Positions 1-47,757 of a stretch of 47,757 bases of DNA are shown in pieces (position 1 is the first letter of the stretch; the number at the start of each line of letters is the position of its first letter). Source of the stretch: a virus (Duplodnaviria > Heunggongvirae > Uroviricota > Caudoviricetes); IMG/VR virus record IMGVR_UViG_2529292906_000010; one strand, written 5' to 3'. Below the pieces are notes generated by a model. That model did not search any database. It saw nothing but the letters and a program-made list of their open reading frames with translations, and had not been told where the DNA came from. The position numbers were made by a program, and so were the translations under genes.

Positions 1-1
1 G

Positions 2-226
2 GTTAAACGGATTTATACGGCAGATGAACAGCAACAACAGGCCGAATCACAAAAGGCCGCGTTACTTTCCGAAGCAGAAAGCGTTATTCAGCCACTGGAA
101 CGCGCTGTCAGGCTGAATATGGCAACGGATGAGGAACGCACACGACTGGAAGCATGGGAACGCTACAGTGTTCTGGTCAGCCGTGTGGATACGGCAAATC
201 CTGAATGGTCACAAAAGCCTGAATAA
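2..226 (+). CDS. tail fibre assembly protein (Tfa), C-terminal fragment; 5' end outside window
   Basis: Open frame from window edge to TAA 224-226; shares a VKRIYT-EEQ-QQAE core with the 255-788 Tfa but has a different C-terminus. Confidence 0.6.
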
Positions 227-232
227 AAATTA

Positions 233-250
233 AGGCCCGCTATCGGGCCT
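233..250. terminator. hairpin between convergent Tfa genes
   Basis: AGGCCCG-CTAT-CGGGCCT stem-loop between stops at 226 (+) and 255 (-). Confidence 0.35.
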
Positions 251-254
251 TGTC

Positions 255-788
255 TCATTCAGGTTGTTCGGGAAATGTTACTGGCAGGCTGGAGGTGTCT
301 GTGGATTCGACTTTCTGCGCATAGAGCATCCACTCGGTTAATTTTTGTTTATTCTCGTCGGAAATGATTCCCAGCCGTAGCTGTGAATCCCATAGCTGGG
401 TTTTATCCCTGACAAGTTGCAACAGGCTTTGCTTTTCATTCTCTGCCTGCTGCCTCTGTTCCTCCTCGGTATAAATTCGCTTTATCACTACTCCATCTTT
501 GAACTTCCATTTACCCGAAATATCAGCCCGGCGATTTGCTGTAATATCTGGAACCTCAACGACGCTTGCGCCTTCTGGATTAATTGCTGAAACATCCTTT
601 TCAATACAAATAATAACGTCGTTGTGGTCATAGACCATTTTCAACGTATCAGGCTGAAAGTTCTTTTGTTCCTCATACCAGTTTTTTCCATCATCTGAAT
701 AAAGCCATTTGATGTTAAATTGTTTCGTTAGCTGGTATTGCTCTTTTGTTTTAGGGTTGCCAGCAGTAATGTTTTTTAAGTGCATCAT
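255..788 (-). CDS. tail fibre assembly protein (Tfa), inverted copy
   Basis: 177-aa ORF; first 20 nt identical to the partial gene at 47738-47757; lies immediately downstream of the inverted fibre cassette. Confidence 0.8.
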   Translation of the reverse strand: MMHLKNITAGNPKTKEQYQLTKQFNIKWLYSDDGKNWYEEQKNFQPDTLKMVYDHNDVIICIEKDVSAINPEGASVVEVPDITANRRADISGKWKFKDGVVIKRIYTEEEQRQQAENEKQSLLQLVRDKTQLWDSQLRLGIISDENKQKLTEWMLYAQKVESTDTSSLPVTFPEQPE

Positions 789-790
789 AA

Positions 791-1486
791 TTAAATACTC
801 CCCGCGTTATACCACCTTCCATTAATGCAATACTGAATTGGCCTTGCCTGCGTTGTATCAATTAATTCATCACGGTTCCCGTTAACTGAACCCGTAACGA
901 CATAACCTGACCTGTCAGACCAGCCGGGACCATTCCATGTCTGAACAGATGACAGACCGCCAAGGCGAATACCTGTAATAAACCTTGAGTTACATTCTGC
1001 CTGTGTATATGCACCAACATCTCCTGCTGAAGGTTTTCGTGTCGTGGTATAGAAATCTGACCAACCTAATTCAAACCCATAACCATCACGAGCCGACCTG
1101 TAGGAAATGCCACCATTTTTATAATTCACACGGAATTGTACGGCAGGACAGCTACCAGCATTTATATTAAAGTGAAGAATTAATGCAGTTGCACCACCAA
1201 TTATGGCGTTATATGCACCACTATCCCAATTCCATCCAACGGATGTATCACCATTAACAGTATTACCTGTTTGTCGGAGTGCAAATGCATTGACATTTTT
1301 GGCACTAATTGAAATATCGCTAGAACCATCAAAACCAACTCCAGCAATTTTTCGTGCTGTTTTCAGCTTTGTTGCAGTAGCGGCATTGCCGGACAGTTCC
1401 CCAGAAAGGCCACCACTGAATGTTTGTCGATTGGTCCAGGTATTCGCCGTACTGAGTAACGGTATTTTTTCCCCGCTTGTGCCGAG
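791..1486 (-). CDS. silent tail-fibre C-terminal cassette (no own start; in-frame up to crossover site)
   Basis: Reverse complement of 47040-47735; translation identical to C-terminus of tail fibre 45702-47735 (NYKNGGISYRSARDGYGFELGW...RWYNAGSI). Confidence 0.7.
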   Translation of the reverse strand, partial: LGTSGEKIPLLSTANTWTNRQTFSGGLSGELSGNAATATKLKTARKIAGVGFDGSSDISISAKNVNAFALRQTGNTVNGDTSVGWNWDSGAYNAIIGGATALILHFNINAGSCPAVQFRVNYKNGGISYRSARDGYGFELGWSDFYTTTRKPSAGDVGAYTQAECNSRFITGIRLGGLSSVQTWNGPGWSDRSGYVVTGSVNGNRDELIDTTQARPIQYCINGRWYNAGSI

Positions 1487-1512
1487 TTCTCGTAAACCGA
1501 GGTTTTTGAGAA
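1487..1512. other. DNA invertase crossover site (gix/hix-like), invertase-proximal
   Basis: TTCTCGTAAACCGAGGTTTTTGAGAA; resembles gix/hix 26-bp sites as recalled; sits where inverted-repeat identity ends. Confidence 0.6.
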
Positions 1513-11807: not shown

Positions 11808-11929
11808 TTACCACATTTAGTGGTTTTCACACGGTAAGACGAGAGGTAGACCACAAATAGAAGGTTATTTTTGTTTCCCCATTGAAAAACTCACGATTTG
11901 TGGTTTTAATACCACATATCGTGGTTTAA
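11808..11929. promoter_or_regulatory. immunity operator/promoter region (OR-like) between repressor and Cro-like gene
   Basis: Palindromes ACCACATTTAGTGGT (11810-11824) and ACCACATATCGTGGT (11911-11925) plus half-sites at 11850 and 11891; TTGAAA -35-like at 11882. Confidence 0.5.
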
Positions 11930-21039: not shown

Positions 21040-21115
21040 GGCCCCTTAGCTTAGTGGTTAGAGCAGGCGACTCATAATCGCACGGTCATCGGTTCAAATC
21101 CGGTAGGGGCCACCA
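21040..21115 (+). tRNA. tRNA with CAU anticodon (Met or Ile2/lysidine type)
   Basis: 76-nt cloverleaf: acceptor GGCCCCT/AGGGGCC, anticodon loop CTCATAA, T-loop GGTTCAAATCC, 3' CCA; recalled as close to E. coli tRNA-Ile2. Confidence 0.8.
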
Positions 21116-22122: not shown

Positions 22123-22419
22123 ATGAAAGTACAAGACCGTGAAGTAGTAAAAAACCTCCTGCAATACCTGACCTCAAAAAACCTGACGGGCAGCGTTGAG
22201 TTCCGTGAAGCGTTAAAACATTTCAACGTCACTACGGTTTATCGTTGGGAAAACAAACATTCTGAAAGACCGTATGTGGTGGATGTTTTTGCGCCTGATA
22301 TTGAGTGCGGTTTTGAGCGTCATTCGTTCAAGGAGAAACATTCTGCTGATTTTTTTGTGAGGTTGTATGTGCGGCAGGAGATGATGAGTGATGCGTATTT
22401 CCTTCAAACGTGCGACTGA
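22123..22419 (+). CDS. hypothetical protein
   Basis: 98-aa ORF after leader copy C. Confidence 0.5.
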   Translation: MKVQDREVVKNLLQYLTSKNLTGSVEFREALKHFNVTTVYRWENKHSERPYVVDVFAPDIECGFERHSFKEKHSADFFVRLYVRQEMMSDAYFLQTCD

Positions 22420-26006: not shown

Positions 26007-26726
26007 GTGGCTGACAGAATTGAGATAAAGATGGATTTTTCTTCTCAGGATATTCAACGACAACTCCAGCGCCTTGAAGAACGCGAATTGCCGTTCGCAA
26101 TGGCGCTTGCGGCAACCAGAACGGCAAAGGCTTCTCAGGCTGCGATTAAGAATGAAATTAATCGGGTATTTGACAGGCCCACGCCGTGGATTCAGAACTC
26201 TACTTACGTTTTGGCCGCAAAGAAGAGTGATCCTACAGCCATTGTGTATGCTCGTGAATGGGGAGGAACGCCAGCCCCTGTAACGTTGACTCCGCAAATT
26301 GAAGGTGGCCAACGACAGTACAAACGCTCAGAAGGGGCGCTAAGGGCTGGTGGATATTTGCCTAACGGCTGGCAGCTTGCTCCTGGTCCCGGCGCAAAGC
26401 TGGACAAATACGGGAATATTTCGCGGGGGCAATTACAGAAGGTCTTATCTGGCCTAAGAGTTCAGCGAGATGCGCATCAAAATCGCCGTCAGGGCAAGCC
26501 TACGGAGTTTTTTGTTGTTCGACCTGGTACAGGTAACCCGCTTCAACCAGGCGTCTGGCAGCGCGTTGGGCGGCGTCCTACGTTGATCCTTACGTTTATC
26601 CAGCAACCTAACTATTCACAGCGTCTTGATTGGCATGGCGTGGCGCTGCGTGCTGGTGAGGATGCGTTTGCTGATGAAGTCACAAAGGCTATTGATGACA
26701 TTCTTTCTAAGACCTTCTCTCGTTAA
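26007..26726 (+). CDS. hypothetical protein
   Basis: 239-aa ORF with GTG start. Confidence 0.5.
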   Translation: MADRIEIKMDFSSQDIQRQLQRLEERELPFAMALAATRTAKASQAAIKNEINRVFDRPTPWIQNSTYVLAAKKSDPTAIVYAREWGGTPAPVTLTPQIEGGQRQYKRSEGALRAGGYLPNGWQLAPGPGAKLDKYGNISRGQLQKVLSGLRVQRDAHQNRRQGKPTEFFVVRPGTGNPLQPGVWQRVGRRPTLILTFIQQPNYSQRLDWHGVALRAGEDAFADEVTKAIDDILSKTFSR

Positions 26727-27283: not shown

Positions 27284-27874
27284 ATGGCTCTAAAAATCGA
27301 ATATTTACCAGTCGGTAAGCTGCTCAGATATGCCAAAAATTCACGGACTCATTCAGATGAGCAAGTTGAACAGTTGGTGAACAGTATCCGTGAGTTCGGT
27401 TTCACTAATCCTGTGCTGATCGATGAAAAGAATGAACTGATTGCGGGGCATGGTCGGCTTGCAGCAGCCGAAATTCTGGAAATGGATAAAGTTCCGGCGA
27501 TTCGGTTGAGTAACCTTTCTGAAAAACAGAAGAAGGCTTACAGGATTGCAGATAACAAGCTGGCCTTAAATGCTGGTTGGGATATGCAGCTTCTGGCCGA
27601 AGAAGTCAAAGAGTTAATGGATGATGATTTTGATATTGATCTGCTTGGGTTTAATGATGCAGAGCTTGACGAAATGTTAAGCGATGAACAGCCGCAGGAA
27701 GAAGACGATAATTCTTCCCCTGTTGTTCAAATTAAGTACCTGGCTATTGATAAAGAACGTATTCCCGCGACGGATATGGAAATTGCATTGTTGCTGGATG
27801 TTTATCGTCAGTACCACGATGCGCATGAAACGCATGAGGGATTTGTTCAGTATCTTGCTAATGGTTGCAAGTAA
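27284..27874 (+). CDS. ParB/Srx-like nuclease-domain protein
   Basis: 196 aa; IAGHGRLAAA box; immediately upstream of terminase small subunit. Confidence 0.6.
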   Translation: MALKIEYLPVGKLLRYAKNSRTHSDEQVEQLVNSIREFGFTNPVLIDEKNELIAGHGRLAAAEILEMDKVPAIRLSNLSEKQKKAYRIADNKLALNAGWDMQLLAEEVKELMDDDFDIDLLGFNDAELDEMLSDEQPQEEDDNSSPVVQIKYLAIDKERIPATDMEIALLLDVYRQYHDAHETHEGFVQYLANGCK

Positions 27875-30298: not shown

Positions 30299-30538
30299 AT
30301 GAACAATGAAGCATTTTCTCTGACTGAAGCCAGAGAGATGTTATCTGTCTGGCGGGAAGCATATCGCGCTATTGCTATTGGCGGTCAGTCATATAAATTT
30401 GGTACGCGGCAGTTAACTCGTGCGGATTTATCAGAAGTCAGAAAAGAGATGGATTACTGGCGTAATGAAGTAGAAAGATTATCAGCAGGTATACGCCGAG
30501 GCCCACGAATTAAACGAGTGGTGATAAGAGATTTATGA
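30299..30538 (+). CDS. head-tail joining protein (lambda gpW-like)
   Basis: 79 aa between terminase and portal; RRGP motif near C-terminus. Confidence 0.65.
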   Translation: MNNEAFSLTEAREMLSVWREAYRAIAIGGQSYKFGTRQLTRADLSEVRKEMDYWRNEVERLSAGIRRGPRIKRVVIRDL

Positions 30539-32108
30539 ATATTCTTGATCGAGTTATTGCACCGTTTTCACCTCAGAGGGCATTAAATCGAGCTTTGGCA
30601 AGAAAACGGTTAGAAGCACTTGAAGGTATTAATAACCTTGGATATTCACGTCATGGTGCAAGCACTCATAAAAAATCATTAAGGGGTTGGTTTAGTAAAG
30701 CTGGTTCTCCTGATGAGGATATTGTTAAAAATATAGATAAATTGCGTGAGCGTTCTCGTGATCTCTTCATGGGAAACCCGCTATCGGTTGGCGCAATAAA
30801 AACTATCAGGACAAACGTTGTTGGTTCCGGTTTAAAACTAAATGCGAACATTGATGCCGATTTCTTGGGGATGACGCAGGAAGAAGCGCGAGCATGGGAA
30901 AAACATGTTGAGCGTGAGTTTAGATTATGGGCTGATTCTCCAAATTGTGATGCATCAAGAATGTGTACTTTTGGACAATTGCAATCATTGGTTCAAATAT
31001 CTGCGTTAACATCTGGCGATATATTTGCTGCGCTACCAGTTATTAAGCGTAATGGTGTTATATATGATTTGTGCGTCTATTTAATTGAAGGTGATCGTGT
31101 TTGCAATCCAGAGGATCGTTTTATACCAAATCTTTACGGTGGCGTAGAGGTTGGTGAATTTAGCGAGCCTGTGGCGTACTGGGTTGCAAAACATCACCCA
31201 GCCGGGACTTCTGGTTTTGTAACCCGCAAGTGGGAACGTATTCCCGCATATGGGAGTAAAACAGGAAGAAGAAATATTCTGCATGTCATGCAGGATTTTG
31301 AAAGGCCTGGGCAACGCCGTGGCGTTCCTGTCCTTGCTCCTGTAATTGAAGCATTGAAGCAGTTAGGACGATACACCGATGCTGAATTGGTTGCTGCGGT
31401 TGTGTCAGGGATGTTTACTGTCTTTATTAAAACAGACGCTCCTGATGGACCAGTCGGTGAATCGGGTATCCCTCAGTACGAGCAGATCGATAACCATGAT
31501 GATAACACCCAAGAAATGGGGAATGGCTCCATAGTAAGTTTGGGTGAAGGTGAGTCGATAGATACAGCAAATCCCGGGCGACCAAATACGGCATTTGATG
31601 GTTTTGTTGTCGCCATATGCCGTCAAATTGGGGCTGCTTTAGAACTCCCTTACGAACTCTTGGTAAAGCATTTTACAGCAAGTTATAGCGCAAGCAGGGC
31701 CGCATTACTTGAAGCCTGGAAAATGTTCCGTATGCGACGTGACTGGATGGTTCAGTCATTTTGCCAACCGATCTATGAGGAATGGTTGGCCGAAGCCGTT
31801 GCTAAAGGTCGTGTTATTGCCCCTGGTTTTTTTATGGGCCTGAATATCGCTCTGCATGGAGTGGCGCTCAATGGTATGGCCCATCACAAGGCCAATTAGA
31901 TCCCCTTAAAGAAGTCAAAGCTGCAAAACTGCGTGTTGAGGAAACATTCTCTACCCGTGAAAAGGAAGCGGCTGAAATGTCAGGTCTTAACTGGGAAGAA
32001 ACCGCACAAATCTGTGGCAGAGAAGAGAATGCTCGCCGTGAGTTGGGGCTTATTACACCTCCTGTTTCTGAGGTAAATGAACAAAATATGGAGACTGATG
32101 ATGCCTAA
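30535..32108 (+). CDS. portal protein (lambda gpB family); frame interrupted near 31888-31897
   Basis: 454-aa ORF ends at TAG 31897-31899; the -1 frame stays open from 31806 to TAA 32106-32108 and reaches the protease start. Confidence 0.7.
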
Positions 32109-33165
32109 TTGGTGGGAAATAAAAAATAGCACGGGTGAAGATGACTCTCCGGCTGAACTTTTAATTTACGGGTATATTGGTGAATTTGATGAGGTTTCTT
32201 CTTCTGACATAGTTAATAAATTAAAGGATATTTCATCAAATACTATCAGCGTAAAAATTAATAGTTATGGTGGTTCTGTTTTTACTGCTCAAGCTATTCT
32301 TTCATCATTAAAGCGTCATAAGGCGAATATTACGGTTTATATCGACGGGATTGCTGCATCGGCTGCAACCATTATTGCAATGGCGGGTGATAAAATTATT
32401 ATCCCATCTAATGCTATGATGATGATCCATAATCCATGGACATTTGCTGCTGGCGATGCGGATGAATTGCGTGATATTGCTGAGATGATGGATAAGATAC
32501 GAAATAGTATTTTATCTGCATATAAGGAGAAAACAGGGCTTTCTGAGGATAAATTAATTGAACTAATGGATCAGGAAACATGGCTAAATGCAGAAGAGGC
32601 TGTAGAGCTTGGATTTGCTGACGAAGTTGAAAAACCTATGCGCTTATCCGCTTCTATAAAGGAAGGGATGCTTTCGCTTAATGGAATAACTTTTGAAGCA
32701 TCAAGGTTTTCAAAATTACCTGATTCACTCGCAAAGTTGCCGCAAAATAAAAATGAGTTATCTACTGAATCAAATGAACAAAATGAGGACGATATTGTGA
32801 CTCTTGATGAATTAAAAAACAAATATCCAGAATTATACAATCAGGTTTTTAATGCTGGTAAAGACGAGGGCGTTAAATCAGAACGCGAGCGCATTGAAAC
32901 AATCGAGAATAGCGTGATTCCTGGTCATGACGACCTGGTTAAGAATGCAAAATTCAAAACAGGAGTTTCTGCGGCTGACCTTGCTTTGGAAATTATGAAT
33001 GCAGAGCGAGCGCGTAACAAAAACTTTCTTAATCAACGGCAAGAAGACGCAAGTGAGGTGAATGATTCAGTTGATGTTAATCAACCAGAAAACAACGGCA
33101 ACAAACAGGCTGAAGCAGTAAAAAATGTTATTGGGTCAGTATTTAAAAACCGCGATAAAAATTAA
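32098..33165 (+). CDS. prohead protease, ClpP-like, with C-terminal scaffold-like extension
   Basis: ClpP-like motifs (NSYGGSV, GIAASAA, MMIHNPW); acidic/coiled C-terminal half. Confidence 0.8.
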   Translation: MMPNWWEIKNSTGEDDSPAELLIYGYIGEFDEVSSSDIVNKLKDISSNTISVKINSYGGSVFTAQAILSSLKRHKANITVYIDGIAASAATIIAMAGDKIIIPSNAMMMIHNPWTFAAGDADELRDIAEMMDKIRNSILSAYKEKTGLSEDKLIELMDQETWLNAEEAVELGFADEVEKPMRLSASIKEGMLSLNGITFEASRFSKLPDSLAKLPQNKNELSTESNEQNEDDIVTLDELKNKYPELYNQVFNAGKDEGVKSERERIETIENSVIPGHDDLVKNAKFKTGVSAADLALEIMNAERARNKNFLNQRQEDASEVNDSVDVNQPENNGNKQAEAVKNVIGSVFKNRDKN

Positions 33166-34622: not shown

Positions 34623-35015
34623 ATGGCCAGACTGATTAAAAACATTGATACGATAAGCCACGGCTCGCTAAAAGCGGGCCGTTTGCTTAATGGGCTAATG
34701 GATAACTCCAGAATTGCCGAACTGATTGCGTCAGGACATGCTATTGCCACCGAAGAGGATGGTGATTTGGCATCGGCTGGGGGCTATGATGCTGCTAAGT
34801 TAGCTTTTGAGCATGGATACGCATCTGCTGTTAATGATGCTGTGGACGCGGGGTTGATTACGCGAACGGAGGCGGGTAGCTGTGTATTCGAGGTTGAGTT
34901 TGAGGATGATGGCGGCAATGAGGAAACGGTTGCTGATGATTCATCTGAATCTGTAGCTACTTCTGATACCAGTAATGCGAAAAAATCAACGCAAAAAAAA
35001 GGTAATAAGAAGTAA
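34623..35015 (+). CDS. hypothetical head-associated protein
   Basis: 130 aa, acidic C-terminal tail. Confidence 0.45.
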   Translation: MARLIKNIDTISHGSLKAGRLLNGLMDNSRIAELIASGHAIATEEDGDLASAGGYDAAKLAFEHGYASAVNDAVDAGLITRTEAGSCVFEVEFEDDGGNEETVADDSSESVATSDTSNAKKSTQKKGNKK

Positions 35016-38142: not shown

Positions 38143-38424
38143 ATGGAAACCGTTAAATTAAGTAAAGAATATCGTTTTGAAGACTTTGAGCCGGTGACTG
38201 AACTCAACCTTGATTTAGACAACCTAAAAGGCAGTGATATTTTAGAGGTATCGGACTTACTGCAATCTCAAGGGCATGTTTCAGTTCAAACATCACTTGA
38301 TAATAAAGTCCATGCAGCCTTGGCTGCTCGCTGTATTGGTCGTCCAATAGAGTATCTGAATGGATTACCAGCGAAAGACTTTGTTAAAGTTTGTCAAAAG
38401 GTACAGAATTTTTTGCTCTCGTAG
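38143..38424 (+). CDS. tail assembly chaperone (P2 gpE-like)
   Basis: 93 aa upstream of tape measure; ends just after slippery TTTTTTG. Confidence 0.65.
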   Translation: METVKLSKEYRFEDFEPVTELNLDLDNLKGSDILEVSDLLQSQGHVSVQTSLDNKVHAALAARCIGRPIEYLNGLPAKDFVKVCQKVQNFLLS

Positions 38425-38573
38425 GTTTTGATGAGCAAAAACCTATTGATAAGCAAATAATGAGGGCCGCGAGTTCTCTATCTCAATCATCTCAATCAAC
38501 ACCTATATCCTACTGGCTTTCGCTTCGGTTGAGGCGAATCGTCGCATGGATTGACGTGTTTAATGAGGATTAA
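38143..38573 (+). CDS. tail assembly chaperone frameshift product (E+E'-like), via -1 shift at 38409-38415
   Basis: Heptamer T TTT TTG in frame; -1 frame continues FFALVGFDEQ... to 38573. Confidence 0.5.
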
Positions 38574-38578
38574 TACTA

Positions 38579-41370
38579 ATGGCCAGCAATAAGAACTTTA
38601 AGCTGGCTTTTGAAATTGGCGGCAAAGTTGCCGCCTCTCTCCCCAAAAGTTTTACTACAGCTAATCAGGCTGTTGCTAAATTAAATGCCGAGCTTGCTGG
38701 ATTAACGAAAGAACATGGGGAAATTCAAAAGCTACAATCTGTAAAAGTAAAGGTTGGACAGACTGCCCTCGAATATCATAAAGCTGCCGCTCGCGTTGAA
38801 GAGTTACAGAAGCAAATAAAAAACACGGCCAATCCAACCAGAGCGATGCTTCGTGACTTTGAGAAGGCAAAAACACATTCATCGAATTTACGAGCATCAC
38901 TACGTTCTCAGCGTGAAGAACTGGCCGCTTTAAAGTCTGCCTATCAGGGAGCTGATACATCTGCCAGAGCTTTGGCCTCAAGAGAGAAAGAGCTTAAAGC
39001 CAGCATTGATCGTAATCGTGAGGCTCAGGCCCGTAGCGTTGAGCAGGTTAACCGCTACAGAACGGCTTTGGCTTTAGCCAGAGCAAATGTTCAGCAAGTG
39101 AAAAACAGCAGGAGGAACTTAACCGGGCATTAGAAAAACAACGTATTGATAAAATTAACAGCTATAAAAATGCGTTGGCTGAAGCACGGAAAAATGTTCT
39201 TGCAGTAAAACGTGCTCAGGAGGAGTTAAACCGCGCGTTGGAAAGGCAGCGTGAATTGAAGCGAGAGCATCTTGGTGAGGCAAAGAGTCAACTTGTAAGG
39301 ACAGGATTACAAACTGGTGCTGTAGCGGCTGGTGCATTTGCTGCTGCTAATAATGCAGCAAATTTTAATCGTGAAAACAAAATGATTGGTCTTACGGCAG
39401 ATATGAAGCCGGAGGAAGTTCAGGCGATGGGGCAAGCGATGCTTGTTACCGGGGCGGCTACCAACCAGTTTGCATCTGATATTCAGGCCGCTCAGGGTTT
39501 TCTTGTCGCTGCTGGGCAGGATTATAAAGAGGCTCAGGCGAATCTACTAACTATTGGGCGAACAGCTACAGCTACTGGCTCTGATATCCTCGATGTCTCG
39601 AAAGCATCATTTACATTAAGTGACTCATTGAAGATTGATCCATCTCAAATGAAGTCTGCAATGGGGATTCTGGTTCAGGCAGGGAAAGAGGGAAACTTTG
39701 AATTTAAAGATATGGCCAAAAATCTTCCTGTGCTTGGTGCTCAGTTCCAGGCATTAAAAATGGGAGGTAAAGAAGCCGCCGCGACGATGGGGGCAGCTTT
39801 GCAGATAGCTCGCAAAGGTGCTGCAACTTCGGATGAGGCTGCTAATAATATGAACAACTTTTTGGCGAAAATACTTTCCCCTGAAACACTAAAAAAAGCA
39901 AAGAAAAATTTCGGTGTAGATTTATATAAAATTGTCACAGCAGCGCAGAAAAAAGGGAAGAATCCATTCGAAGCTGCAATGCATTCTGTCATGAAAATGA
40001 CTAAGAACGGAGATCAGAAGTTACTTGGTGAGCTATTTGGCGATATGCAGGTTCAGAACTTTGTTCGTCCGATGATTCAAAACTGGAAGGAATACCAGAG
40101 AATCAAAGCAACATCTCTTGGAGCTGGAAGTGCTGTTATTGACCGCGATTTTGCCAACATAACGAAAGATAATGCGGAGCGATTGAAACAATTACGTATT
40201 CAGGCTAGCAATGCATCATTAAGTTTTGGTCAGGCCTTGCAACCTGCTTTAAATGCCGCGCTTAGTGTTTTGGTTCCGCTGATTACAAAAATCAGTGAAT
40301 TTGTAGCTAACAACCCCAATTTTGTTTCTCAGATTGTGATGGCGGCAGGTGCGTTTCTAACCATGAAAAGTGTGGTTATAGCGTGTAGGGTAGCTATGCT
40401 GGCTTTATCTGTAGCGACAAAGCTAACCCCTTTCGGGTGGATTCAGATGGCCATATCAGCCATTGTGGCGTTAGGTATATTGTTGTATCAGAATTGGGAT
40501 AAAATAAAAGAATGTGCATCAAAAGTTTGGCCTGCTATTAAGGATTACACTGTTAAGTCTTTTGAGACTATAAAAAACTTTATCTTAAACTTTGATCTCA
40601 ATGGATGGATTATATCTATGTTTGGTAAAGCATGGTATTATCTTTCCAACATAAACTGGAGTTCGGCAGGAGTAAGAATTTACAGTGCATTAATTAGTGC
40701 TTTTAAATGGATGTCTCCGCTTCCGTTCTTAATTAAAGCATTTAAACTTACAACAAATTACCTTTCTGGCATTAACTGGAGCGAAACAGGAAAGAAAATC
40801 ATAGATACACTGGTGTCTGTTTTTATGCGTTTTTCGCCAGTTGGACTATTTATAAGAGCATTCCAATCTGTAACGGCTTATTTATCTGGAATAAACTGGA
40901 GTGAGTCAGGTGCAAAAATAATTGAGACGTTAATCACTGGGATAAAATCAAAAGCAAATGCTTTAATTAATGAAGTGAAAGGCGTTTTTTCTTCTGTACG
41001 TGAGTATTTACCGTTCTCTGACGCGAAAAAAGGTCCATTCTCACAGCTAACAAAGTCAGGTGGTGCAATAATGACTACTCTGGCATCAGGTGTTAGCAGG
41101 AATAACAGCTTACAGAATGCAATAGCAACCAAGTTCGGGCAATCAAATTTATCACCTCACGGGATATCTGCCGCCGGGACTTCTGGACCTCGCCAGAACG
41201 TTAACGCTGTGACTGGTGGAATAACCTATTCACCTGTAATCAATCTTCCGGCTGGTTCACCAAAGGAAACTGAGGCGGCAGCTAAAAGAGCATTAGATGC
41301 GGGATATTCTGATTTTGAGAAGAAATTGAGTGCTCATATGTTCCAACAACGGAGATTAAGTTTTGGATGA
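38579..41370 (+). CDS. tail tape measure protein; frame interrupted in A5 run at 39101-39105
   Basis: Coiled-coil N-terminus continues across the apparent stop at 39131 in the -1 frame; C-terminal TM and GINWSE repeats. Confidence 0.8.
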
Positions 41371-41581: not shown

Positions 41582-42572
41582 AACGCTTTTTGATGTTGTA
41601 TATCAGAGTGTAAATATTACCGCTCATATGTCACCTGATGTTTTGTCAATGTCTTATACAGATAATGAAGATGGTCAGGTCGATGATATTTCTATTATAT
41701 TAAAAAATGATGATGGGAAATGGTCTGGAGACTGGACACCTAAAAAGGGTGATTTTATTGATTTGAGCTTTAAGCCTATAAATCAAATCGTCCTTGAGTG
41801 TGGGAAATTCCAGGTGGATGGCATAACTTGCTCTGGACCACCTTCTGTTGTTGAGGTGACTGCTGTTTCTGTTCCTGTTTCATCAGGCATTAGACGTGAT
41901 TTAAAAAGTAATGCATGGGAAAAAACAACTCTTAAAGATATAGCGACTTCTATAGCTAAATTAGCTAACCTTGAACTGTTGTTTCTTATTGATGGTGATA
42001 GTAATCCATATTATGCGCGTGAAGATCAAATGGAGGAAAGCGATTTAAAATTTCTCCATCGACTTTGCCAGGATGAAGGGGTGTCGTTAAAGGTCACTGA
42101 TAGCCAATTAATAATATTTGCTCAAGAGATGTTTGAGCAAAAAGATCCTATCGCTACGCTTACGTTAGGTATTGATGAGATAATCAGATATAGCTTTAGC
42201 ACACAATCTACAGATTTGTATAAAAGTTGCACGTGCAAATATCGCGTACCTAAAAAAAGAAAGTCGCTTTCGTATACTTGGGTAGATCCATCCGTAGAAG
42301 AAGGGGCGAATCTTAAGATAAGAAAACTGGTAGCTAATTTAGATGAAGCAAAACGTAAGGCAAAGGCTGCTTTGCGGCTTAAAAATAGATATCAAAATAC
42401 CGGATCTTTAGTTTTGGTTGGAGACACCAGATTGGTAGCTGGTGTAACTATAAATCTGGACGGATTCGGTTCATTTTCTGGAAAATATCTTATATCGAAA
42501 GCTGTGCATTCAATTGGGGCTAGTGGTTATACCACCTCGATTGATGTCCGAAGAGTAATTAATGGGTATTAA
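41571..42572 (+). CDS. tail protein (P2 gpD-like late control D family)
   Basis: 333 aa after tape measure; GTG start. Confidence 0.65.
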   Translation: MLRKTLFDVVYQSVNITAHMSPDVLSMSYTDNEDGQVDDISIILKNDDGKWSGDWTPKKGDFIDLSFKPINQIVLECGKFQVDGITCSGPPSVVEVTAVSVPVSSGIRRDLKSNAWEKTTLKDIATSIAKLANLELLFLIDGDSNPYYAREDQMEESDLKFLHRLCQDEGVSLKVTDSQLIIFAQEMFEQKDPIATLTLGIDEIIRYSFSTQSTDLYKSCTCKYRVPKKRKSLSYTWVDPSVEEGANLKIRKLVANLDEAKRKAKAALRLKNRYQNTGSLVLVGDTRLVAGVTINLDGFGSFSGKYLISKAVHSIGASGYTTSIDVRRVINGY

Positions 42573-45701: not shown

Positions 45702-47735
45702 GTGAGTAAATTATTATTTACGATGACTGACGCCGGGCGTCAGGAGTTGGTTAATGCCAACAAAACAGGAACAAATAAAGTTGAGATTGTTTCTGTTGGT
45801 TTAGGTGGTAGATATTATGTCACGTCAACCTCACAAACAAATATAACAAACGAAATAAAACGACTTACCACAATAGGTGGCAAAGTTGTTTCCCCTGATA
45901 CAATTCATGTAACGGCGAAGGATGATAGTAAAGATGAGTATGTTGTCCATACAATAGGATTGTATACAAATAAGGGAACGTTGTTTGCTGTATACTCGCA
46001 AGAACAAGCAATAATAAATAAAGCATCATCTACTATTGCTTTAATATCAAGTGACATAGCAATCAAGACTCTTGATACTAAAAATATTATATTTGGTGAT
46101 GTTGAGTTTATTAATCCTCCCGCGACCGAAACTGTTGTTGGGGTTGCAAGATTTGCTAATGAACAAGAAATTGATGCAGGTACAGATGATTCCCTTGCTG
46201 TTTCAGCAAAGCGGCTTAAGCAAGCCATTGTGAAACATGAGCAATCACGTAATCATCCTGATGCAACTTTAACCTCAAAAGGCTTTGTTCAACTTAGCAG
46301 CGCCACCAATAGCACGTCTGAAACGCTTGCTGCGACGCCTAAGGCTGTTAAGGCAGCATATGACCTGGCTAACGCTAAATACACCGCACAGGACGCTACC
46401 ACTGCGCGGAAAGGGATAGTTCAGCTCAGTAGCGCCACCAACAGCACGTCTGAAACGCTTGCGGCAACGCCAAAGGCTGTTAAGGCGGCATATGACCTGG
46501 CTAATGGCAAATACACCGCACAGGACGCTACCACTGCGCGGAAAGGGATAGTTCAGCTCAGTAGCGCCACCAACAGCACATCTGAAACGCTGGCTGCGAC
46601 GCCAAAAGCTGTTAAGGCGGTAATGGATGAAACGAACAAGAAAGCGCCCTTAAACAGTCCTGCGCTGACCGGAACGCCAACAACGCCAACTGCGCCAAAA
46701 GGGACTAATAATACTCAGATCGCAAGCACGGCTTATGTGATGGCCGCGATTGCCGCACTTGTAGACTCGTCGCCTGACGCACTGAATACGTTGAACGAGT
46801 TAGCGGCGGCGCTGGGAAACGACCCGAATTTTGCGACCACCATGACTAAAGCGCTTGCGGGTAAGCAACCGAAAGATGCCACTCTGACGGCGCTGGCCGG
46901 GCTTGCTACTGCGGCAGACAAGTTTCCGTATTTTACGGGGAATGATGTCGCCAGCCTGGCAACCCTGACAAAAGTCGGGCGGGATATTCTTGCGAAATCG
47001 ACCGTTGCCGCTGTTATCGAATACCTCGGTTTACGAGAACTCGGCACAAGCGGGGAAAAAATACCGTTACTCAGTACGGCGAATACCTGGACCAATCGAC
47101 AAACATTCAGTGGTGGCCTTTCTGGGGAACTGTCCGGCAATGCCGCTACTGCAACAAAGCTGAAAACAGCACGAAAAATTGCTGGAGTTGGTTTTGATGG
47201 TTCTAGCGATATTTCAATTAGTGCCAAAAATGTCAATGCATTTGCACTCCGACAAACAGGTAATACTGTTAATGGTGATACATCCGTTGGATGGAATTGG
47301 GATAGTGGTGCATATAACGCCATAATTGGTGGTGCAACTGCATTAATTCTTCACTTTAATATAAATGCTGGTAGCTGTCCTGCCGTACAATTCCGTGTGA
47401 ATTATAAAAATGGTGGCATTTCCTACAGGTCGGCTCGTGATGGTTATGGGTTTGAATTAGGTTGGTCAGATTTCTATACCACGACACGAAAACCTTCAGC
47501 AGGAGATGTTGGTGCATATACACAGGCAGAATGTAACTCAAGGTTTATTACAGGTATTCGCCTTGGCGGTCTGTCATCTGTTCAGACATGGAATGGTCCC
47601 GGCTGGTCTGACAGGTCAGGTTATGTCGTTACGGGTTCAGTTAACGGGAACCGTGATGAATTAATTGATACAACGCAGGCAAGGCCAATTCAGTATTGCA
47701 TTAATGGAAGGTGGTATAACGCGGGGAGTATTTAA
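45702..47735 (+). CDS. tail fibre protein (constant N-terminal part plus invertible C-terminal cassette from ~47040)
   Basis: 677 aa; three tandem ~44-aa fibre repeats; C-terminal 232 aa identical to the inverted cassette 791-1486. Confidence 0.9.
   Translation: MSKLLFTMTDAGRQELVNANKTGTNKVEIVSVGLGGRYYVTSTSQTNITNEIKRLTTIGGKVVSPDTIHVTAKDDSKDEYVVHTIGLYTNKGTLFAVYSQEQAIINKASSTIALISSDIAIKTLDTKNIIFGDVEFINPPATETVVGVARFANEQEIDAGTDDSLAVSAKRLKQAIVKHEQSRNHPDATLTSKGFVQLSSATNSTSETLAATPKAVKAAYDLANAKYTAQDATTARKGIVQLSSATNSTSETLAATPKAVKAAYDLANGKYTAQDATTARKGIVQLSSATNSTSETLAATPKAVKAVMDETNKKAPLNSPALTGTPTTPTAPKGTNNTQIASTAYVMAAIAALVDSSPDALNTLNELAAALGNDPNFATTMTKALAGKQPKDATLTALAGLATAADKFPYFTGNDVASLATLTKVGRDILAKSTVAAVIEYLGLRELGTSGEKIPLLSTANTWTNRQTFSGGLSGELSGNAATATKLKTARKIAGVGFDGSSDISISAKNVNAFALRQTGNTVNGDTSVGWNWDSGAYNAIIGGATALILHFNINAGSCPAVQFRVNYKNGGISYRSARDGYGFELGWSDFYTTTRKPSAGDVGAYTQAECNSRFITGIRLGGLSSVQTWNGPGWSDRSGYVVTGSVNGNRDELIDTTQARPIQYCINGRWYNAGSI
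46281..46620 (+). repeat. tandem 132-bp repeats within tail fibre gene (~2.6 copies)
   Basis: GGGATAGTTCAGCTCAGTAGCGCCACCAACAGCAC... recurs at 46413 and 46545. Confidence 0.7.
47014..47039. other. DNA invertase crossover site (gix/hix-like) inside tail fibre gene
   Basis: Reverse complement TTCTCGTAAACCGAGGTATTCGATAA; inverted-repeat identity with 769-1500 begins at 47026. Confidence 0.6.
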
Positions 47736-47737
47736 TT

Positions 47738-47757
47738 ATGATGCACTTAAAAAACAT
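47738..47757 (+). CDS. tail fibre assembly protein, first 6 codons (3' end outside window)
   Basis: ATGATGCACTTAAAAAAC identical to the start of the inverted Tfa at 788. Confidence 0.5.

Follow-up and report, generated by a model that had tools for sequence, protein, structure and literature searches.

The window analysed here, i.e., the whole stretch of 47,757 nucleotides (positions 1-47757), is the entire NCBI draft contig AIFV01000057.1 (GCA_000249595.2), whose accession prefix AIFV we take to be that of the DECA collection, and it represents a complete E. coli phage-plasmid of ~47.8 kb. The annotation of its relatives assigns to the element repA, parA and a RelE/ParE toxin-antitoxin pair, together with virion modules whose head is lambda-like and whose contractile tail is P2-like. 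Such relatives are found in about 72-75 of the 5426 complete E. coli genomes (~1.4%), almost always as plasmids of 47-51 kb, and near-identical elements are known as infectious phage isolates from Yersinia pestis and E. coli. We dropped vB_YpM_HQ103 (PMC11177050) as a lead on this phage family, since it is an unrelated 32-kb peduovirus. The tail-fibre and tail-fibre-assembly segments (window 1-1512 and 46278-47757) are inverted relative to those in the relatives (for example, window 769-1512 corresponds to 23795-23052 in the relative L006), where they are adjoined by a recombinase gene; the arrangement points to a host-range segment that can be inverted, of the Cin/Gin type, and within which the contig was linearised. 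The window also contains a single tRNA gene with a CAT anticodon (21040-21115), called tRNA-Met by ARAGORN and tRNA-Ile in the RefSeq annotation of the relatives, the latter reading needing a lysidine-modified CAT anticodon.

The genes of the head module are arranged in the order large terminase, DUF6148, portal, ClpP-like protease, decoration protein and lambda-E-type capsid, so that the portal gene sits in a head-morphogenesis module, adjoining the large terminase and the prohead protease. As deposited, the portal ORF occupies 30535-31899 on the plus strand and encodes 454 aa, ending at the TAG at 31897-31899. Its authentic frame comprises 30535-31833 (plus strand; residues 1-433, ending ...APGFF), as judged by tblastn with the relatives' portal, residues 1-435 of which match window 30535-31839 at 99.3% identity. 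The rest of the ORF (31834-31899, plus strand) is an out-of-frame read-through of 21 spurious codons plus the TAG; its residues 434-454, MGLNIALHGVALNGMAHHKAN, are the product of the wrong frame and have no counterpart in any homologue. After a TAA at 31803-31805, the -1 frame runs without a stop from 31806 up to the next TAA at 32106-32108, translating as ...FFYGPEYRSAWSGAQWYGPSQGQLDPLKEVKAAKLRVEE... and ...PWFFYGPEYRSAWSGAQWYGPSQGQLDPLKEVKAAKLRVEE.... This segment shares 97.9% identity with the relatives' portal over residues 430-524 of the latter, a match far beyond chance, and its part at 31833-32108 (plus strand) constitutes the true portal C-terminus, namely, residues 434-524 of the repaired protein plus the TAA. 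Gene callers mark only a 43-aa ORF (31977-32108) in this region. The stop of the -1 frame lies 8 nt inside the gene of the ClpP-related head maturation protease, which is intact (ATG at 32101; 32101-33165, plus strand; PF00574, E = 8.4e-32), and the same 8-nt overlap between portal and protease genes appears in the annotation of the intact genes of the relatives.

To locate the lesion, we compared the 1574-nt portal region with five phage genomes, i.e., Yersinia phages vB_YpM_39, vB_YpM_41 and vB_YpM_44, and Escherichia phages vB_EcoM-613R2 and vB_EcoM-473R2, which match it at 99.0-99.3% identity but span 1575 nt. In the relatives the portal gene is one continuous 1575-nt CDS annotated as portal protein. 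The sole gap in the alignment to these phages falls in the T-run at 31827-31833, which is T7 in the window versus T8 in the relatives, and T8 was found in all of the 19 relative loci retrieved. The run lies directly 3' of a CCTGG motif (31822-31826). Adding one T yields a portal of 524 aa that differs from WP_001022885.1 at 3 residues. An earlier note on this sequence had described a portal stopping at the TAG at 31897-31899 after 454 codons and a -1 frame open over 31806-32108 that reaches the protease start, and had proposed that a 1-nt repair would restore a portal of ~524 aa. We recovered the same coordinates for both, and the split and the -1 frame C-terminus therefore stand, as does the length of the repaired protein. 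The proposed site of the indel, near AAGGCCAATTAG (31888-31899) just upstream of the stop, does not. An insertion there would formally join the two frames, as the -1 frame is open from 31806. However, no indel and only one substitution separate the window from its relatives over 31834-31960, and the homologues continue with FFYGPEYRSAW... immediately after APGFF. Thus a lesion at 31888-31899 is refuted, and alignment places the true site ~60 nt upstream, in the T-run.

The Pfam domain Phage_portal_2 (PF05136) covers residues 46-402 with 338 bits against a gathering cut-off of 32.9, in the truncated and the repaired protein alike (E = 7.6e-101 for the repaired 524-aa protein). As this match stops at residue 402, short of the break, Pfam alone cannot reveal the truncation, and alignments to solved structures are needed. 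In phmmer searches, residues 33-506 of the repaired portal aligned to 8vhx_D and residues 36-509 to 8k38_A (lambda gpB), both spanning the 433/434 junction and taking in the post-break segment FY.P..R.A...A.W.G.S.GQ.D..KE. The C-terminal extension that the earlier note expected from an alignment to lambda-family portals is thus borne out. The note had also considered that homologues might end at the same position as the deposited ORF; they do not, since the break site is read through without a stop in 80 of the 80 viral-contig relatives (59-99% identity). By tblastn, at least 80% of the 524-aa query is covered in one place in 691 of 846 phage records. The repaired portal therefore resembles lambda gpB (PF05136; 8k38) and 8vhx in its homology over the full length and in the head gene order, but it is only ~27% identical to lambda gpB (tblastn), and in contrast to lambda, the head module here is combined with a P2-like contractile tail and with a plasmid replicon, the portal being split by one missing T.

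The T7 allele is private. The full-length matches comprise 57 plasmids of PLSDB and 71 RefSeq records of E. coli; across the T-run, not one of them agrees fully with the window, and all but one span one extra base; likewise, none of the five phage genomes is identical to the window across this run. Three contig collections (viral, GTDB-genome and metagenome) do not contain the exact 30-mer with T7, whereas the T8 version of this 30-mer is present.

A second break of the same kind affects the tail tape-measure gene (38579-41370, plus strand), which is split into 38579-39133 and 39175-41370. Alignment to the relatives locates this lesion in an A-run at 39101-39105, which is A5 in the window versus A6 in the relatives, and the repaired tape measure has 930 aa, 2 of which differ from the relatives. 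With one extra base spanned, the top-ranked of the 71 finished E. coli records (99.2%) all differ from the window across the A-run. When every annotated CDS of two relatives was mapped onto the window, 56-58 of 66-67 genes were intact, including the ParB/Srx gene at 27284-27874 (100% intact). Only the portal and tape-measure genes are frame-broken, the other failing genes being divergent or absent accessory and tail-fibre alleles, and we found no nonsense mutation, IS insertion or internal deletion among the relatives' genes mapped onto the window. A small ORF at 22123 was tried as a third broken gene and rejected. Near its end, this gene is polymorphic at 22350-22356 (T7/T8), its product having 98 or 89 aa accordingly; public assemblies contain either allele, and the T7 allele (98 aa) is widespread in independent assemblies, metagenome contigs among them.

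Set against up to 15 relatives, the window shows 52 substitutions, five deletions and no insertions that are private to it; each of the deletions removes a single base from a homopolymer (at 11868, 19117, 19230, 31827 and 39101). The proportion of shortened runs grows with run length, from 0 of ~450 runs of four to ~4% of runs of six and ~25-35% of runs of seven. The three deletions outside the portal and tape-measure genes are intergenic single-T losses at 11868, 19117 and 19230 (T5, T6 and T4 versus T6, T7 and T5 in all covering relatives), one of them in the divergent repressor/early-operon region and two upstream of holin genes; they may be real polymorphisms or miscalls. We had taken the one-sided deletion bias as strong proof of error, but downgraded it when more relatives showed several of the sites to be shared polymorphisms. 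Moreover, since the lineage has truly diverged, as its 52 private substitutions indicate, the 5:0 bias alone is not proof of error.

A second assembly that contains the same element is the Logan re-assembly of the SRA run SRR094143, which encodes the identical 454-aa portal product and also has T7. As it shows 0 substitutions relative to the NCBI contig over 19.8 kb, the same strain lies behind both assemblies. The two agree on T7 in the portal gene and on A5 in the tape-measure gene, and these calls are therefore not a quirk of one assembler. However, the NCBI and Logan assemblies conflict in run length at three other positions, i.e., 22350 (T7 versus T8), 26508-26513 (T6 versus T5) and 34993-35000 (A8 versus A7). 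The NCBI call is backed by 12 relatives at 26508-26513 and by 8 relatives at 34993-35000, so that the Logan calls at the two sites are under-calls; they break two further genes in that assembly. In addition, the Logan contig ends right after the A7 run at 42252-42258. The three conflicts indicate that run lengths in the SRR094143 reads are unreliable and biased to contraction. Such contraction-biased run lengths are typical of flow-based chemistries. They are also typical of long-read data (PMC8011154, PMC12007338), and homopolymer indels, mainly false deletions, dominate the errors of such assemblies and give rise to false frameshifted pseudogenes (PMC8011154, PMC12007338).

The same shortened runs recur in other datasets. 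The run SRR5998741 shows 0 substitutions but 3 homopolymer deletions in 10.3 kb relative to its sister run SRR5998721, one of which is the same portal T8 to T7 change and another of which breaks the terminase. T7 is also present at the portal run in CP165565.1 (L107), a record with many shattered genes, and CP042622.1 (L093) has 8 short indels in 6.1 kb, several of them at CCWGG motifs, with the portal site reading C3-TGG-T6. In both of these records, short indels shatter the terminase, portal and other genes, and they look like unpolished long-read assemblies rather than degraded elements. The A6 to A5 change of the tape-measure gene occurs in six other SRA runs (Logan assemblies) with differing backbones, four of which are rich in homopolymer deletions (6 of 7, 14 of 17, 7 of 10 and 3 of 3 indels). 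The lesions in the window resemble the type of error addressed by Homopolish (PMC8011154) and Kastor (PMC12007338) in that they are private single-base deletions in homopolymers, commoner in longer runs, are contradicted by homologues and break conserved genes, and in that homopolymer lengths shift between assemblies of the same reads. On the other hand, the indel density in the window is low compared with CP042622.1 and CP165565.1, being at most ~5 in 47.8 kb.

Since the T7 run reads as the slippery heptamer U_UUU_UUU, the two portal frames might instead be joined by programmed recoding, i.e., through a -1 shift of the ribosome or the addition of a U by transcriptional slippage. The sequence GG U UUU UUU AUG at 31827-31833 fits the X_XXY_YYZ pattern in the zero frame, a -1 shift there would produce exactly the 524-aa protein, and low unprogrammed slippage is plausible at slippery runs. 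However, the gene is one continuous ORF in about 130 close relatives and in 80 relatives at 59-99% identity, with no split seen. The T-run varies from T2 to T8 through codon choice (e.g., GGC TTC TTC GAT), whereas the peptide APGFF is invariant in the 80 relatives. The 100 nt downstream of the T-run show no sign of a stimulatory RNA structure, having an MFE of -21.3 kcal/mol versus a shuffle mean of -25.2 (z = +1.18), with 173 of 200 shuffles folding at least as well. Furthermore, as the C-terminal region would be needed in every portal subunit, a mostly truncated product would have no rationale. Given the lack of a split in relatives, the variable T-run and the lack of a downstream fold, we reject recoding, which we consider extremely improbable. 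The likeness of the portal T7 to the programmed -1 frameshift sites of phage tail-assembly chaperones (P2 E/E+E', lambda G/GT) is that of a U-rich slippery heptamer in sequence only; unlike those systems, it has no conserved run, two-ORF layout or stimulatory structure. Elsewhere in the window, a TTTTTTG heptamer (38409-38415) in X_XXY_YYZ phase lies at the end of the tail-assembly chaperone gene (PF10109, Phage_TAC_7; 38143-38424), and the -1 frame of this region (38143-38573) is open for 52 codons, to just upstream of the tape-measure start. This heptamer looks like a genuine programmed -1 frameshift site of the P2 E/E+E' type.

The earlier note had left the choice between a sequencing indel and an inactivating mutation; a single-base indel is indeed present, the homologues do not end at the truncation, and the run-length conflicts between assemblies of the same strain, together with the recurrence in noisy datasets, favour the former. 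We therefore consider it likely that the portal split is a homopolymer under-call in the draft assembly, in which T8 was read as T7 at 31827-31833. Reads with unreliable homopolymer lengths would have led to T8 being called T7, the A6 to A5 break in the tape measure would have the same origin, and in the real element the lambda-family portal is most likely intact at 524 aa, with the -1 frame ORF supplying its C-terminal 91 residues. Accordingly, we infer that T7 is a miscall and not the true allele of the strain, and that the sequencing platform of SRR094143 was of the pyrosequencing type; if the SRR094143 reads were Illumina reads, T7 and A5 would probably be real. A true -1 slippage from T8 to T7 that inactivated the portal, with a second one (A6 to A5) in the tape measure, the plasmid persisting without virions, is a much less probable alternative. 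Both alleles are reproduced in the two assemblies, repA, parA and the toxin-antitoxin pair would make persistence possible without virion genes, and private indels are to be expected in a lineage with 52 private substitutions. Homopolymers are genuine mutational hotspots, and since slippage in them is also a route of mutation in vivo, the recurrence at these sites is also compatible with a biological hotspot. However, the two assemblies share their read chemistry and conflict at three other runs, and this alternative calls for two independent knock-outs of essential genes without other signs of decay, the repaired proteins having only 2-3 aa changed. Neither allele is found among ~130 finished relatives (T7) or the top-ranked of the 71 E. 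coli records (A5), and outside this strain the two were encountered solely in re-assemblies by Logan or in records laden with errors, the majority of which show numerous homopolymer deletions. It is very unlikely that the portal T8 and the tape-measure A6 are hypermutable contingency sites that switch reversibly between a virion-producing and a plasmid-only state; if they were, T7 and A5 in unrelated read sets could be true subpopulations, and the T7 allele might yield a little full-length portal via spontaneous -1 slippage on U_UUU_UUU.

Read literally, the record points to a defective phage-plasmid whose portal is truncated, whose tape measure is split and which has an orphan ORF of 43 aa. 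Were the frameshifts real, the strain would harbour a derivative locked in the plasmid state, a finding of modest interest. Under the preferred reading of a homopolymer under-call, the portal T8 beside CCTGG and the tape-measure A6 would be positions at which public assemblies of this phage-plasmid family err repeatedly, and the correction would keep the contig out of counts of domesticated or decaying phage-plasmids, a relevance that lies mostly in annotation quality. Beneath the split lies an ordinary portal gene of the lambda family, with nothing novel about it, from a lineage of E. coli phage-plasmids that is already known, and the virion module of this phage-plasmid is most likely intact, like that of the relatives isolated as infectious phages.
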